Source of the DNA: a virus
Taxonomy: Duplodnaviria; Heunggongvirae; Uroviricota; Caudoviricetes
Length of the DNA stretch: 64,000 nucleotides
Reading direction: 5' to 3' (one strand)
IMG/VR virus record: IMGVR_UViG_2744054962_000001
This document shows, one piece after another, positions 45,166 to 51,307 of this stretch; the first letter of the stretch is position 1, and every line of letters begins with the position of its first letter. Under the pieces are notes generated by a model, which was not told the origin of the DNA, did no database searches, and saw nothing but the letters and a program-made list of their open reading frames with translations. The position numbers were made by a program, and so were the translations under genes.

Positions 45166-45870
45166 ATGGCTACATCGACAGTAATTCCAGGAGACATCAC
45201 CACGTTAAAGGGAGATGTCAGTAAAGCCAAGGAAGATATTTCCTCAATTAACGGAAAAGTATCAACGCTTCAGACTGATATGACCAGTGCAAAGCAGGAT
45301 ATCAGCACCAGATACACAAAAACTGAAGTTGATAATAAGCTGAAAAACAAAGTGGAAGTGAACGATCTGGAAAGTGGTCGTTATGGTGGAGATTTTTACC
45401 CGCTGACTGGTCGTGAAGCGTTTTATTTGTGGGGATTGGGCACGACTACAGCGGCGGCAAACCTTTATCTTAATCCTGACCCCGCAATTTCGTCTGTACT
45501 GCGGTCCACATCGTCTATCCGCTATAAACATTCAGTAGAGACGATAGATTCGGAGCACGCCGATCTCATTTTCAAGATGCGCCCTGTGTGGTACAGGTCG
45601 CAATGCGAAAATGACAGGCGCGATTGGGGATTCTATGGATTGATTGCCGAGGAAGTAGGAGAAATTGCCCCTCAGTTTGTTCACTGGCGACCAGCTAACG
45701 AGAATGATGCTCCTGAAGCTATTTCCAGCAATGGCCTTGTTGCCGAAGGTGTAATGTACGAACGTCTGGTTGTTCCACTGATTCACCATATCCAGAAACT
45801 GACTGAAAGAGTTGATGAACTTGAGTCAGAATTAAAGTTGTTATCAACTTCCCGAAGCGATATTGGATAA
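45166..45870 (+). CDS. Fibre-like protein with C-terminal intramolecular chaperone (peptidase S74-like) domain
   Basis: N-terminal coiled coil; C-terminus SSIRYKHSVETIDSEHADLIFKMRPVWYRS..GLIAEEVGEIAPQFVHW resembles the autoproteolytic chaperone domain of phage fibres. Confidence 0.55.
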   Translation: MATSTVIPGDITTLKGDVSKAKEDISSINGKVSTLQTDMTSAKQDISTRYTKTEVDNKLKNKVEVNDLESGRYGGDFYPLTGREAFYLWGLGTTTAAANLYLNPDPAISSVLRSTSSIRYKHSVETIDSEHADLIFKMRPVWYRSQCENDRRDWGFYGLIAEEVGEIAPQFVHWRPANENDAPEAISSNGLVAEGVMYERLVVPLIHHIQKLTERVDELESELKLLSTSRSDIG

Positions 45871-45880
45871 AGGAGGAGTA

Positions 45881-46165
45881 ATGGATATAACACCTTTCCT
45901 TCATGCACTTTGTGCTGTGGCTGCGCAGGTACTGGTTGGTCTTTTTACCGGAAACTGGGCTTACGGGGCGATAGCCGGTTGTACGTTCTTCATTGCTCGT
46001 GAACATACCCAGGCAGAATATCGCTGGATTGAAATATTCGGGCATGGCAAGCGAATGAATATGCCGTGGTGGGGCGGTTTTGATCCGCGCGCGTGGGATG
46101 TAGCAAGTCTGATGGATTTTGCGATTCCACTTTTAGCGTGCACATTATTATATATTTTTATTTAA
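45881..46165 (+). CDS. Small membrane protein (94 aa)
   Basis: AGGAGG RBS; two hydrophobic segments. Confidence 0.5.
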   Translation: MDITPFLHALCAVAAQVLVGLFTGNWAYGAIAGCTFFIAREHTQAEYRWIEIFGHGKRMNMPWWGGFDPRAWDVASLMDFAIPLLACTLLYIFI

Positions 46166-46286: not shown

Positions 46287-46346
46287 AAAAAAGATAAAAT
46301 GTGATATAAATCCGCCATCCCGATTTGACTTTTCATGGAGGAAAAT

Positions 46347-46670
46347 ATGTCGAACGAGATGGCGGGCGTAACAACAGAGCAAGTTGAGCGCATTGCCGCG
46401 ATCGTTGCTCGGGAGGTTGTCGGCAAATTAGGTAAAGAGCTACGTGAAGAAATTGGCCAGGAGGTCAACGATCAGCTGAAAACCTACTTTGGTGATATGA
46501 CCCCGGCGCAACATAGTATTCAACACTCCAACCTGGACAAACTCCTTAACCGGTTAGATTCCATCTCCAGTGGGTTCTTTGGCGGCATTGTTTCTAAAAT
46601 AACGTCGTTCATTATTACCGCACTGCTTTTGGGGTTAGCCGCGTATGGCGTGAAAAATGGACTGCAATAA
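46347..46670 (+). CDS. Putative holin or lysis regulator (C-terminal transmembrane helix)
   Basis: GGAGGA RBS; hydrophobic C-terminus; first gene of lysis block. Confidence 0.4.
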   Translation: MSNEMAGVTTEQVERIAAIVAREVVGKLGKELREEIGQEVNDQLKTYFGDMTPAQHSIQHSNLDKLLNRLDSISSGFFGGIVSKITSFIITALLLGLAAYGVKNGLQ

Positions 46671-46683
46671 CAGGAGATCAAGG

Positions 46684-47376
46684 ATGAAGACTCCGAGAGG
46701 CATTCGTAACAATAACCCCGGTAATCTTGATAAAGGATCGCCGTGGCAAGGTCTGGTTGCTAATCCAGACGAACCCCGCTTTTGCACGTTTAAAGACCCT
46801 GTTTGGGGGATTCGTGCGCTGGCGGTGACTCTAATTACCTACCACGACAAACGTCGCGCAAAAGACGGCTCAAGTATCGATACCATTCGTGAAGTTATTG
46901 AACGCTGGGCACCGCCGAACGAAAATAACACTGACGCCTATATTAATGAGGTGTCCAAAGCAGTTGGTGTAACCGCAGACATGATTATCGATCTGCATGA
47001 TTACGACATCCTTCGACCTTTAGTTGAGGCAATCATTCGCCACGAGAATGGCCGAGGCCCGCTAAAAACGCTGAACACCTGGTATGCGGCAGAAGTTATT
47101 GAGGAAGGTCTGCGTCGAGCTGGCGTCGTTAAGCCGGTGAAAACGGTGAAGGCTGTTCCTGTAACGAAAGAAACCGCAGGCGCAACTGTTACAGCAGGTA
47201 TTGGTCTGGCGCAGCTTGCCGATGTTATGCCGCAGATTTCCGCTGCTATGGATAAAGCACAAGGTCATATCTCTAGCGGGGATACAGTACGCATCATCTT
47301 CGGTATTGCCACTATTGTTGTGGCAGGATTCATTGCCTGGTCGCAGGTAAGAAAACACCAGAAAGGGATGGTCTAA
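46684..47376 (+). CDS. Putative endolysin (by position), with C-terminal hydrophobic helix
   Basis: Between holin-like gene and spanin pair; AGGAG RBS; catalytic family not assigned. Confidence 0.4.
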   Translation: MKTPRGIRNNNPGNLDKGSPWQGLVANPDEPRFCTFKDPVWGIRALAVTLITYHDKRRAKDGSSIDTIREVIERWAPPNENNTDAYINEVSKAVGVTADMIIDLHDYDILRPLVEAIIRHENGRGPLKTLNTWYAAEVIEEGLRRAGVVKPVKTVKAVPVTKETAGATVTAGIGLAQLADVMPQISAAMDKAQGHISSGDTVRIIFGIATIVVAGFIAWSQVRKHQKGMV

Positions 47377-47377
47377 T

Positions 47378-47629
47378 ATGCTAGGCAGCCTGATGACAAA
47401 GCTAAAAGTTGCTTTGATTACGCTGGCTGCCGTTCTTTTCGTTCTTGTCGGCGCTTACACGATGGGCGGGAATGCGGCGCGACGAGCAATGGAAGAGAAG
47501 GCAAAACAGGAAGACAGAAAACGACTTCAAAACACAGTGAAAGTGGTGAATGAGACGAGCAGTAAAATACGTCAGAAAGATGCTTCTGCCGTTCATCGTG
47601 AGTTGTATGATAAGTGGGTGCGTCATTAA
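47378..47629 (+). CDS. i-spanin (Rz-like)
   Basis: N-terminal TM helix then charged coiled coil; o-spanin-like gene embedded in +1 frame. Confidence 0.6.
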   Translation: MLGSLMTKLKVALITLAAVLFVLVGAYTMGGNAARRAMEEKAKQEDRKRLQNTVKVVNETSSKIRQKDASAVHRELYDKWVRH

Positions 47630-47797: not shown

Positions 47798-48319
47798 TTA
47801 TTCTTCGAACAATTTTTCGATAGATTTTGTAGGATAGAACAAAGAACGCTCGTTGTTACCAACCAGCTGGATAAAGCCTAAACTTTTATAAAACGCCTTG
47901 GCTTTGTCATTTAACGCCTCAACGAAAAGTCCATGAATGCCTACAGCAAGAGATGCATTGTACACAACGCGCATTGCATGTGTTACAAGCATTGAGCCAA
48001 ATCCTTGACCTTGAAGGGACTTGTCCAAAGCCAGCCTACCCAAAGTAACACTTGGAACATTCCGATAAGGAACCTTCTTTTGTTTGCTTCTTGAAGGTAA
48101 GGACTCCTTTTCAAAACAACTACCTGACAAAGTGTAATATCCTAACACTTTTGGCCTTTCTTCTTGAGTGCAAAGCACATAAGCACGAAGAATTTTTCCC
48201 TCATGCTGCCTTTTTAAGTGGTTGGCTAAAAAGGCGTTTAGTGACTCTTCGCCGCAATCAAAACCGTTTAGATCATAATCTTTCTCTCCAGAGAAAATCT
48301 CTATCGTTGTATTGCTCAC
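47798..48319 (-). CDS. GNAT-family acetyltransferase toxin (TacT/AtaT-like)
   Basis: GNAT motif LQGQGFGSML; GTG start 7 nt after antitoxin stop. Confidence 0.75.
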   Translation of the reverse strand: MSNTTIEIFSGEKDYDLNGFDCGEESLNAFLANHLKRQHEGKILRAYVLCTQEERPKVLGYYTLSGSCFEKESLPSRSKQKKVPYRNVPSVTLGRLALDKSLQGQGFGSMLVTHAMRVVYNASLAVGIHGLFVEALNDKAKAFYKSLGFIQLVGNNERSLFYPTKSIEKLFEE

Positions 48320-48326
48320 GAGTAAA

Positions 48327-48596
48327 CTACTCCATGCTTTTCAGACGATCAGCAGCTCGTTTCAGCTTGTCGTTCGGTGCCGGAGGATTGCTTATAGCGT
48401 CCATAACCAGATTCCAGGATTCTTCATTCAGAACTAGTCTACGGTGTTGCTCTATAACTTTCACGGCACGTTCAGATGCACTGCTAACCATAAACTGAGT
48501 AATGCTCTGGTTAGACATTGCGGCAGCTTCCTCGATGATGCTTTTATCGTCATCGGTTAATCTCAAATCGATGCGCTGCTTTTTTAGTGCTGACAT
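48327..48596 (-). CDS. RHH antitoxin (DUF1778/TacA-like)
   Basis: 89 aa from ATG 48596 (AGGAGG RBS); immediately upstream of GNAT toxin. Confidence 0.7.
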   Translation of the reverse strand: MSALKKQRIDLRLTDDDKSIIEEAAAMSNQSITQFMVSSASERAVKVIEQHRRLVLNEESWNLVMDAISNPPAPNDKLKRAADRLKSME

Positions 48597-48864
48597 GTAT
48601 TCCTCCTGATGGCCGTGATGTAGGAAGGCCATCAATCTCCTCTGTTCAAACTGAGTTTTCGACTCAAAAATTACTTTAAAAGGCTATAGCCCATTACGTG
48701 TGCATTATCAAATTGTGTACGGCATATCACCGTACTTGTAATATAGAGGTCATTGTTACTTTTTTCAACAGACAAATACAAGCTATGATTGCCAATTGTT
48801 AATCACAACCTACCATTTAACCTTTACACCGCAGCCGTAGGCATTTAGGCTATATCACATATAA

Positions 48865-49583: not shown

Positions 49584-49942
49584 TGTCCATGAAAATGGGT
49601 GACCTAGCAAAGCGCAAAGAGCCTGATGCACCGGCTAAGAACACAACTCCTTTGCGCCAACCAGTCAGACCACAAGGACGCCCGACTCGTGGCAAAGAGA
49701 AAATTAAAAGCCGCACTATGTCACTGGAAGACGAATACTTCGAGCTTCTGGAAATGATGAAGTTTATCCCTCGTTTCGAGAAGTTCACCCGCTCTGATGT
49801 GATTCGTGCTGCTATTTTCCATCTGGCAGAGAAGTCACCGCAGGAAATCGAGGACATCGTAAAGCTGAACGAGGCGATCACAGCTGCCGATGTCACGATG
49901 CGTACCGATGAAATTAAACGCGAGTTGATGAAGAAAGGTTAA
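49583..49942 (+). CDS. Small partition partner protein (RHH/ParG-like, putative)
   Basis: TAATG overlap with parA; basic N-terminal tail then RHH-like segment. Confidence 0.5.
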   Translation: MSMKMGDLAKRKEPDAPAKNTTPLRQPVRPQGRPTRGKEKIKSRTMSLEDEYFELLEMMKFIPRFEKFTRSDVIRAAIFHLAEKSPQEIEDIVKLNEAITAADVTMRTDEIKRELMKKG

Positions 49943-49945
49943 TAA

Positions 49946-49978
49946 TGTGGGCTGTCTAGCCCACATTATTTTAATTAA
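49946..49978 (+). terminator. Rho-independent terminator
   Basis: TAATGTGGGC-TGTC-TAGCCCACATTA followed by TTTTAATT. Confidence 0.6.
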
Positions 49979-49993
49979 AGTGGAGTGATAATT

Positions 49994-50746
49994 ATGCATT
50001 CGTTAGTATTTGCATTTAAAAACATACTCAAGAATGTTATAAACATACTAGGGATGTTAAATATTTTTTTGTCTGTGAGGGTGAGGAGAAAAGATATAAA
50101 AGATAAATTAAAGGAACTTAACAAAGAAAAAGAACAATTAAAAAGCGAAGAAATTATTATTGATTTATACAAGAAAAAACTCGCATCTAGCAAGGGGAAA
50201 GCTAATGATAAAATCAAAGGAAAAATAATTCACTATATTATTGCTAGAGAGTTGGGGAATGATCCTGATAATGAAGATTTGCGACATAATCTTTTTACAA
50301 AGATAAAAGAATCAGAAGAACAGGTTGAAGTTCTGGTTCATCAAAGAGAAGTAAGTGAGCAGGCGAACAAAAAAGAAACGGTTGTCAATTTGTTTTTATT
50401 GTATGAAAAAAATAAATTGTTTAAAGCTAAGGGGTTGGCTGTGTTTCTTATAGTTATAAACTTAATTATAGTTGCGACTCTCGATCTTCCAGCTTGGTCA
50501 TTGATTATAAGTTTTTTTATTCTCTCTTTGATTATGTTGAAAGATCAGATACTTACTATTCGTGTCTCTAAAGGATATTTTGGCACAAGTGCGTATGAAG
50601 CGGTTCAATTGCTTAAATTCATCAGAGAAAATTCAGACAAATTTGACTCAGATGATAATGACGGTAGCCCACGACGGATATTGAATCCGAAGGGAACAAC
50701 AAAAAAATCAGACAACCTATTCGATAAAGGGTGGCAAAATGTTTGA
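49994..50746 (+). CDS. Hypothetical membrane protein (250 aa), AT-rich
   Basis: GGAG RBS; K/E-rich N-terminal region then two hydrophobic segments. Confidence 0.5.
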   Translation: MHSLVFAFKNILKNVINILGMLNIFLSVRVRRKDIKDKLKELNKEKEQLKSEEIIIDLYKKKLASSKGKANDKIKGKIIHYIIARELGNDPDNEDLRHNLFTKIKESEEQVEVLVHQREVSEQANKKETVVNLFLLYEKNKLFKAKGLAVFLIVINLIIVATLDLPAWSLIISFFILSLIMLKDQILTIRVSKGYFGTSAYEAVQLLKFIRENSDKFDSDDNDGSPRRILNPKGTTKKSDNLFDKGWQNV

Positions 50747-51161
50747 CCTTGACGCCATCACTAAGTTCTTAAATCAGTGTTTTGATCTACTTTTGCTCAA
50801 GCAGCCTTTAAGAACTGTTTTCGGAATACTGATTGGTTTCATTATTTTTGTTTTTGTTTACACGTTTAGGTTTGCGATAGCTCAAGATTTTTATGAAATA
50901 GATGGTGTGCATTACGCTGCATGTTTCGTCATCGGTGTTTTAGTTGTTCACACAAGAACATTTTTTGACGTTATCAAGGGCACCGCAGTTGATGAAGAAA
51001 TAGATAGTATGATCAGAGTTATTACGAAGCAGCCACACCTATCTAACCATCAAAAAAACATAATGATTGCTGAAATACTTCAAAAAGAAATTGCAGCCAT
51101 AAGTCAAAAGAGATTGGATAAAGTTGCACAAGAAATAACGGAGAAAAAGACAACTGATTAA
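50739..51161 (+). CDS. Hypothetical membrane protein (140 aa), AT-rich
   Basis: Start overlaps upstream stop; two predicted TM helices. Confidence 0.5.
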   Translation: MFDLDAITKFLNQCFDLLLLKQPLRTVFGILIGFIIFVFVYTFRFAIAQDFYEIDGVHYAACFVIGVLVVHTRTFFDVIKGTAVDEEIDSMIRVITKQPHLSNHQKNIMIAEILQKEIAAISQKRLDKVAQEITEKKTTD

Positions 51162-51169
51162 TTTAATTA

Positions 51170-51224
51170 CCTGTTTCTGTATATAAATAATAAGTAACTT
51201 ATTAAATATATATACGGAAGCAGG
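51170..51224. repeat. ~55-bp AT-rich imperfect palindrome, copy B
   Basis: CCTGTTTCTGTATATAAATAATAAGTAACTTATTAAATATATATACGGAAGCAGG; flanking TTAAAGAC indicates inverted orientation relative to copy A. Confidence 0.8.
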
Positions 51225-51307
51225 TCTTTTAAAAGACACCCACCAGAACAACTCCCTTCCGTTTCCACTTCCAAAAACTGCCACCAGTCGCTATCATCCG
51301 CTCATTG

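Follow-up and report, generated by a model that had tools for sequence, protein, structure and literature searches.

What do two overlapping, AT-rich genes for small membrane proteins do between the partition genes and the replication genes of a phage-plasmid? The question is raised by a stretch of 64,000 nucleotides from the IMG/VR virus record IMGVR_UViG_2744054962_000001 (Caudoviricetes), called the window here, which derives from an SSU5-like phage-plasmid of Escherichia coli and has a GC content of 0.459 (46%). Its two genes, here named A and B, had been described in a reading made without database searches (the sequence-only reading) as a coupled pair of membrane proteins, consistent with inserted cargo and possibly acting in superinfection exclusion or abortive infection. 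We found that A and B constitute a self-contained, horizontally mobile two-gene module with strict A-then-B order. That it is an anti-phage module of some kind, as genomic context and topology would suggest, is in our judgement an even call.

The gene pair and the slot it occupies

Gene A (49994-50746, plus strand) encodes 250 amino acids (aa; phrog_22270, WP_021520118.1) and gene B (50739-51161, plus strand) 140 aa (phrog_17322, WP_021520119.1). Both open reading frames (ORFs) lie where the sequence-only reading had placed them and coincide exactly with RefSeq coding sequences of the 100%-identical plasmid pMTY18780-3, where both are annotated as hypothetical. The ATG of A at 49994 is preceded by a GGAG motif 8 nt 5' of it. 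The ATG of B at 50739 is located within the last codons of A, so that both genes share an 8-nt overlap over the A stop codon (ATGTTTGA), a layout typical of translational coupling and suggesting it here. The marked AT-richness claimed for the pair was borne out: A has a GC content of 0.315 and B of 0.348 (about 33% for the pair) compared to 0.459 for the window, sliding GC dips to 0.29-0.37 only at about 49800-51200, and the pair is AT-richer than its own flanks in 19 of 19 loci. Comparison with an 81%-identical copy from Enterobacter hormaechei gave a ratio of nonsynonymous to synonymous substitution rates (dN/dS) of 0.27 for B; within A, the N-terminus stood at 0.29 and the core at 0.16. Since dN/dS lies between 0.16 and 0.29, A and B are functional genes under purifying selection, and the N-terminus is the fastest-evolving part of A (0.29 vs 0.16 in the core). 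Homologues extend to other phyla, which counts against chance ORFs.

The genes of the window are arranged in the order lysis cassette, minus-strand GNAT/DUF1778 pair, ParA, a 119-aa ParB-like protein, A and B. To the right of B follow a conserved 249-aa protein (phrog_2500), a DnaB-like helicase and a primase. Using megablast the flanks were found in about 250 plasmids and the A+B insert only in 7 E. coli genomes and one Enterobacter plasmid. In the sister plasmids compared, ParA is 96-100% and the ParB-like protein 98-100% identical, and the contents of the slot between the flanks differ. One sister (L005) has an empty slot, another (L003) a GIY-YIG gene matching PD-T4-3 (PADLOC 1.3e-23) and a third (L004) a 564-aa P-loop NTPase matching the PADLOC candidate PDC-S49 (2.3e-22).

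We determined the borders of the slot from junction alignments of plasmids carrying A+B, PD-T4-3, PDC-S49 or an empty slot. The variable segment begins right after the stop codon of the parB-like gene and finishes just before a palindrome, which in the window corresponds to a cargo cassette of about 1.2 kb with 32% GC (49943-51168, plus strand). Directly after the parB-like stop codon (TAA, 49940-49942) a hairpin with a perfect 13-bp stem, a 4-nt loop and a T-rich run 3' of it is found (49941-49970, plus strand). In the junction alignments its sequence changes with the type of cargo and the empty slot is devoid of it; it is the left end of the cargo cassette and likely a partial terminator of parAB. 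The palindrome on the other side (51169-51225, without strand assignment) is about 55 bp long, imperfect and AT-rich, and its predicted fold of -13.2 kcal/mol is well separated from shuffled sequences (z = -6.4). It is located just upstream of the conserved phrog_2500 gene, helicase and primase and is kept in all SSU5-like backbones compared, including the distant ones from Klebsiella and Salmonella. Because the empty-slot plasmid also has it, the palindrome is part of the backbone rather than of the cargo and borders the slot on the right. Allowing up to 3 mismatches, neither the palindrome nor the right-flank sequence was found a second time in the window. The palindrome may serve as an operator or an origin-related site. 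The sequence-only reading had named a terminator and this palindrome as flanks in keeping with an insertion; both elements are real, but neither is an insertion scar, the palindrome being part of the backbone and the hairpin specific to the cargo.

Between parB and A no plus-strand sigma-70-like promoter was found, and the total number of promoter-like sites equals the shuffle expectation. In phage SSU5 and plasmid pJN2-26, A begins 2 nt 3' of the parB-like stop codon. The pair is therefore probably co-transcribed with parAB.

This parAB is present in 263 complete E. coli genomes. The GIY-YIG gene was counted in 107 complete E. coli genomes, the NTPase in 28 and A+B in 7, all on plasmids, with the slot position of the GIY-YIG gene and the NTPase confirmed in one example of each. 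Among PLSDB plasmids, 770 encode the ParB-like protein, 74 encode A and 73 encode B (tblastn), with an identical breakdown by genus. In all host genera the pair is therefore accessory, and about 90% of the SSU5-like plasmids are without it. PD-T4-3, PD-T7-5, PrrC and restriction-modification have been reported on SSU5-like phage-plasmids of E. coli and Shigella (bioRxiv 10.1101/2025.09.12.675607). The slot between parAB and the replication genes is an accessory defence hotspot of the SSU5-like phage-plasmid, and as far as we could find no phage-plasmid hotspot beside parAB has been described earlier. The view of the pair as inserted cargo is strongly supported, since the slot is empty or otherwise filled in close relatives and the pair recurs in unrelated mobile elements.

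Two protein families and their predicted topology

In word-indexed searches A was represented by only 8 clusters and B by 4, each of them found on contigs of about 110 kb. A profile built from 19 A sequences and used for an exhaustive HMMER search yielded 570 clusters at E <= 1e-3 and 127 at E <= 1e-10, each cluster standing for a representative at 50% identity. In 28 of the 28 closer related loci long enough to show both genes, A is followed by B. At loci L033-L036 an overlapping B homologue 3' of A was found by the B profile. Matches to this profile beside far A homologues were obtained in a lambdoid prophage (1e-15), in Pseudoduganella (7e-17), on a divergent SSU5-like contig (3e-18) and in a cyanobacterial metagenome-assembled genome (1e-4). 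At L037, L039, L040, L041 and L042 the downstream ORF overlaps or abuts A. The possibility that A and B are paralogues was rejected (hhalign probability 0.2%), as was a conserved third gene: L033, L035 and L037 have unrelated genes 5' of A, and downstream genes differ (PD-T7-5, PDC-S31 or none). In pKPHS1 (L008 4831-5597) A is split into ORFs of 61 and 144 aa by a 1-base deletion compared to an intact relative, and B is intact; the A copy may be a genuine pseudogene, or else the older assembly contains a sequencing error.

The domain layout had been predicted as a K/E-rich region followed by two hydrophobic segments in A and as two hydrophobic segments in B, and our analysis agrees with this: A contains 43 K+R and 33 D+E in 250 aa, and hydropathy fits for both proteins. 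The features described below are all encoded on the plus strand. Residues 1-125 of A (49994-50368) comprise an amphipathic N-terminal helix and a K/E-rich helical, coiled-coil-like region of about 100 residues. Alignments show that this is the variable part of the family. In the SSU5 and chromosomal copies two extra transmembrane (TM) helices and a short coil replace the K/E-rich region, and 5 of 146 distant A homologues carry a FecR-N (DUF4880) domain at their N-terminus instead of the coil (Pfam scan, best 3.8e-09). The coiled coil, the extra TM helices and the FecR-like anti-sigma domain are candidate sensor types of A. The DUF4880 fusions are P0150 and four others, and one of these five lies at L039 1044-1736; no gene for an extracytoplasmic function (ECF) sigma factor was visible beside the fused A on the one short contig examined.

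A conserved basic juxtamembrane helix follows at residues 126-145 (50369-50428; KKETVVNLFLLYEKNKLFKAK). Its consensus is (K)xT(V/I)xxL(F/Y)LxxEK, and K126, T129, L133, L135, L136, E138 and K146 are invariant in the A alignment. Residues 146-183 (50429-50542) form a TM hairpin with segments at about 146-164 and 167-183 by hydropathy, connected by the short loop DLPAWS. Across the A family the regions before and after the hairpin have on average 3.05 and 3.21 K+R, respectively, compared to 0.25 in the loop; both ends of A are therefore predicted to be cytoplasmic (N-in/C-in). Residues 184-235 (50543-50698) contain the conserved, predicted cytoplasmic signature LKD..L.(Y/I)RV.KGYFG....EA.QLLKFI.EN.DKFD.DD.DG..RRILN, which in the family as a whole reads (L)K(D/E)..L.(Y/F)R(V/I)..G(Y/F)(F/Y)G.N..EA..L(L/I).FI..N.D.(I)DF.D..G..R(K/R). 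R190, G194, G197 and E202 are at least 90% conserved among 146 sequences, and R190 and E202 are invariant among 57. The window A shows the family core, a hairpin and then (Y/F)R..G(Y/F)(F/Y)G....EA, including all four of these residues.

B starts with an N-terminal helix and a conserved P-x-R-T motif at the membrane boundary (residues 1-26, 50739-50816). Two hydrophobic helices (about 24-48 and 58-78) with a short acidic loop lie in residues 27-78 (50817-50972), followed by a predicted cytoplasmic helical tail with a conserved L(S/T)..(Q/E)(K/R) element (residues 79-140, 50973-51158). In the B alignment R25, T26, G29 and G33 as well as G66 in TM2 are invariant, D5 and P23 near-invariant. The family signature P.RT..G...G is present in the window B with R25, T26, G29 and G33. 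The basic N-terminal flank of B predicts an N-in orientation.

An AlphaFold2 (AF2) model of A was all-helical with a predicted local distance difference test score (pLDDT) of 55.6 using 7 sequences and 59.0 using 19 sequences. The hairpin is its best-predicted part, with pLDDT 68-82. A Foldseek search of the model against PDB and BFVD gave nothing below E = 0.3.

Database searches assign A to phrog_22270 (2.9e-115, residues 12-250) and B to phrog_17322 (7.8e-69, residues 1-136). Both are families of unknown function in PHROGs v4, and distant A and B homologues match them too. PADLOC-DB v2 gave only weak coiled-coil matches, to PDC-M02B (0.0012) and LeoBC (0.0088) for A and to JetC (0.01) for B, and no match for six further A or B homologues; the scan did recover PD-T4-3, PDC-S49, PD-T7-5 and PDC-S31 in neighbouring or alternative genes. 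A sequence-profile search of the PDB returned noise only (best E = 0.19). Neither A nor B nor 146 A homologues matched Pfam SLATT_1 to SLATT_5, with SLATT_2 found at 8.5e-14 in a gene neighbouring the pair at L035 as a positive control. The superinfection-exclusion families of Pfam (Imm, SieB, Cor) gave no match at E <= 1. No mention of the protein accessions was found in a literature search, and the papers on P2/P4 hotspots (Rousset et al. 2022, PMC9122126; NAR 2026, PMC13586616) describe no such pair. Two DefenseFinder names used on SSU5-like plasmids were considered and rejected: HEC-06 is a GmrSD-like protein and DS-37 a single gene associated with AbiH, neither being the A/B pair.

Mobility and genomic neighbourhoods

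Phage SSU5 carries the pair (SSU5_035, SSU5_036) directly after its parB-like gene, and Klebsiella plasmids pJN2-26, pKPHS1 and others also encode it. Beyond phage-plasmids, the pair, in each case an A with an overlapping B 3' of it, is located in P4-like islands with integrase, AlpA, Bro-N and D5 primase on Enterobacter and Klebsiella aerogenes chromosomes, and at the end of a Klebsiella oxytoca myovirus prophage beside chromosomal genes. A P2-like prophage has it between the tail-completion gene S and the spike gene V, and a lambdoid prophage between replication genes on one side and HNH/terminase genes on the other. Further sites are an integrase island with MqsRA and a nuclease, a Pseudoduganella defence island and a cyanobacterial contig, where the copy abuts a transposase. 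Comparative genomics, which the sequence-only reading had recommended, thus shows the pair as accessory cargo recurring across element types.

The neighbourhoods of the pair are defence loci. PD-T7-5 (7e-131) is encoded directly 3' of B in the P4-like islands, and ApeA adjoins the pair on one metagenomic contig. In Pseudoduganella the pair is flanked by a SLATT_2 protein on one side and by a TerB-N/TerB-C protein and a BrxC/D ATPase on the other. For P4 defence hotspots it has been reported that 6 of 8 randomly chosen loci of unknown function protected against phages (PMC13586616). In SSU5 a DUF2971 protein matching PDC-S31 (2e-33) is encoded directly 3' of B (SSU5_037, L007 5999-6757), and pJN2-26 has the same third gene after B (L009 5888-6646); cargo genes are therefore stacked in one hotspot. 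The P2-like prophage with A+B also encodes a ParA-like ATPase and a HEPN_RiboL-PSP protein beside its portal gene (L031 76-708), probably another defence cargo locus.

Several other features were noted in the window and its sisters. A second variable slot extends from Rz to parA. In the window it is filled by the minus-strand pair at 47798-48635, which encodes a GNAT acetyltransferase (173 aa, phrog_1758) and a DUF1778-type partner (102 aa) and resembles TacT/TacA toxin-antitoxin pairs. In pMTY18780-3, the A+B slot of which is identical, and in other sisters this second slot holds two unrelated hypothetical genes of about 128 and 250 aa. The lysis cassette (46335-47629) consists of a putative holin (phrog_5093, SSU5_026 homologue), an endolysin (phrog_873) and an Rz-like spanin (phrog_1026). 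The endolysin (46657-47376) has a C-terminal hydrophobic stretch, IIFGIATIVVAGFIAWSQV, followed by basic residues, suggesting a putative membrane anchor that would be unusual for an endolysin. The exclusion lipoprotein Cor is encoded a few genes upstream of the lysis cassette in sister plasmids (L004 1-198, L005 686-919). In the neighbourhood matching that of Cor, the window has a 100-aa membrane ORF (45863-46165, phrog_1443, unknown function).

Possible functions and relation to known systems

Superinfection exclusion or abortive infection, the roles named in the sequence-only reading, fits the context of the pair, with PD-T4-3 and PDC-S49 as alternative occupants of the slot and PD-T7-5, PDC-S31, ApeA, SLATT_2, TerB and BrxC/D as neighbours. 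We tentatively propose, with a confidence slightly short of even, that A and B represent a widespread, unrecognised defence system made of two new membrane-protein families and ranging from Enterobacteria to Burkholderiales and Cyanobacteria, in which A would combine a modular N-terminal sensor with a conserved effector core and B would be the obligate partner. As to its mode of action, an abortive-infection-type membrane effector is favoured, although we hold this as a possibility well below even. It is favoured because the conserved mass and the variable domain are predicted to be cytoplasmic and because the core is conserved across phyla.

In such a mechanism transcription of parAB would run through the hairpin into the pair while the element is a plasmid-prophage. 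Expression would be timed to the state in which the resident element gains from excluding competitors. Both proteins would reside in the inner membrane with short periplasmic loops and nearly all of their mass in the cytoplasm, B being translationally coupled to A as its obligate partner. The variable cytoplasmic N-terminus of A may sense a cytoplasmic cue of infection, upon which the A core and B, forming a complex, would compromise the membrane and the lysogen would be protected against other phages.

Several points weigh against this proposal. Scans of A, B and their homologues against Pfam, NCBIfam, PADLOC v2 and PDB sequences returned no family match and tied the pair to no known defence protein, leaving function to guilt by association, and hotspots also house toxin-antitoxin systems and further accessory cargo. 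Part of the AT-richness would be expected of membrane proteins rich in K, I, L and F. Some B homologues have weakly hydrophobic segments only. Support at the level of the fold is absent because the A model is poor (pLDDT 59). The A-B complex and expression in lysogens are both putative, and the preference for abortive infection over a block of injection derives solely from topology and the variable cytoplasmic N-terminus of A.

Other explanations have to be weighed against an abortive-infection effector. The pair could act in superinfection exclusion at DNA entry, where an A/B complex would block genome injection, as T4 Imm, P22 SieA and HK97 gp15 do, and the host would not be killed. Both are small, prophage-borne inner-membrane proteins with probable expression in the lysogen, P2-like and other prophages have the pair at classic moron sites, and SSU5-like plasmids carry Cor nearby. 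We nevertheless consider this unlikely: the periplasmic loops comprise only a few residues, the conserved parts and the variable domain are predicted to be cytoplasmic, the cytoplasmic signature spans Proteobacteria to Cyanobacteria, whereas the exclusion proteins known so far are phage-specific and of narrow distribution, and no Imm or SieB family of Pfam was hit. A toxin-antitoxin-like addiction module, in which a membrane toxin and its antidote would stabilise the element by post-segregational killing, appears quite unlikely. Most SSU5-like plasmids do without the pair, integrated prophages and satellites carry it at defence loci, and both products look like stable membrane proteins without features of a labile antitoxin. 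These points stand against a location in the maintenance region right after parAB, with the GNAT/DUF1778 toxin-antitoxin pair on the other side of parAB, a small overlapping two-gene layout typical of such modules and the vicinity of MqsRA in one island. Addiction overlaps with abortive infection and does not exclude it.

A lysis-timing pair, either holin/antiholin or another lysis regulator of the phage-plasmid, would likewise consist of two small membrane proteins encoded by overlapping genes in a phage genome, and homology to holin/antiholin proteins had been named beforehand as the finding that would speak against the sequence-only reading. The outcome was negative. Neither protein matched a lysis family of Pfam or PHROGs, the only PHROGs hit being of unknown function, a complete and separate holin/endolysin/Rz cassette is present at 46335-47629, most sister plasmids keeping this cassette lack the pair, and the pair also occurs in P4-like and chromosomal defence islands, which makes a role in lysis very improbable. 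We regard it as similarly improbable that A and B serve plasmid partition or replication, either as a membrane tether or as an accessory factor. The location between parAB and the helicase and primase genes and the probable co-transcription with parAB would suit such a factor; however, plasmids with near-identical partition and replication genes have an empty slot or unrelated genes in it, and the pair is found in integrated elements without par genes.

If the proposed defence function is true, A and B would be a compact module of about 1.2 kb made of membrane proteins alone, unlike catalogued systems, and a defence hotspot in the style of P2 and P4 would exist beside the partition genes of SSU5-like phage-plasmids. 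Clinical E. coli, Shigella, Klebsiella and Salmonella commonly carry such plasmids, which bears on the host range in phage therapy and on plasmid persistence. The hypothesis is directly testable through the definition of the families by the A-then-B order and the invariant residues in A and B. If the pair does not act in defence, it is still a large unnamed family of protein pairs missed by Pfam and NCBIfam. Beyond what the sequence-only reading offered, the pair is now a member of a large, cross-phylum two-gene family.

The closest counterparts are SSU5_035 and SSU5_036, which belong to the same families and have the same position after a parB-like gene as the window pair, although the N-terminus of the SSU5 A has two additional TM helices where the window A has its K/E-rich coil. 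Among characterised systems, RexA/RexB of phage lambda and two-component abortive infection resemble the pair as a two-gene prophage cassette with a membrane component, and the proposed logic, a cytoplasmic sensor coupled to membrane damage, would be similar to that of Rex. The analogy is functional only: no sequence similarity was found (Pfam, PADLOC), and A and B each span the membrane with a single hairpin, in contrast to a soluble RexA and a RexB with four TM helices. SLATT effectors share with A/B a two-TM hairpin, cytoplasmic helices, variable sensor domains, either fused or associated, and a location in defence islands. However, A/B have no Pfam match to them, and the conserved motif of A follows TM2 and is unrelated. 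T4 Imm, P22 SieA/SieB and HK97 gp15 are like A/B small phage-encoded inner-membrane proteins at accessory loci and are expressed in the lysogen, as A/B probably are, but they are single genes of narrow distribution, their families were not matched by A or B, and the conserved parts of A/B are predicted to be cytoplasmic. None of PARIS, the 2TM+1TM+TIR system, Crouga, Bandua, Aernus, Toga, Reve and Hailong is a pair like A/B. The slot itself resembles the defence hotspots of P2 and P4 (PMC9122126, PMC13586616), fixed sites with rapidly swapped AT-rich cargo, and A/B itself occurs in P4-like islands and a P2-like prophage; in contrast to these the hotspot of the window is located in a phage-plasmid, between parB and a backbone palindrome. 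Although its families are unnamed and unrelated to catalogued systems, the pair would thus be of a familiar kind, namely swappable defence cargo on a temperate element that acts via membrane proteins.

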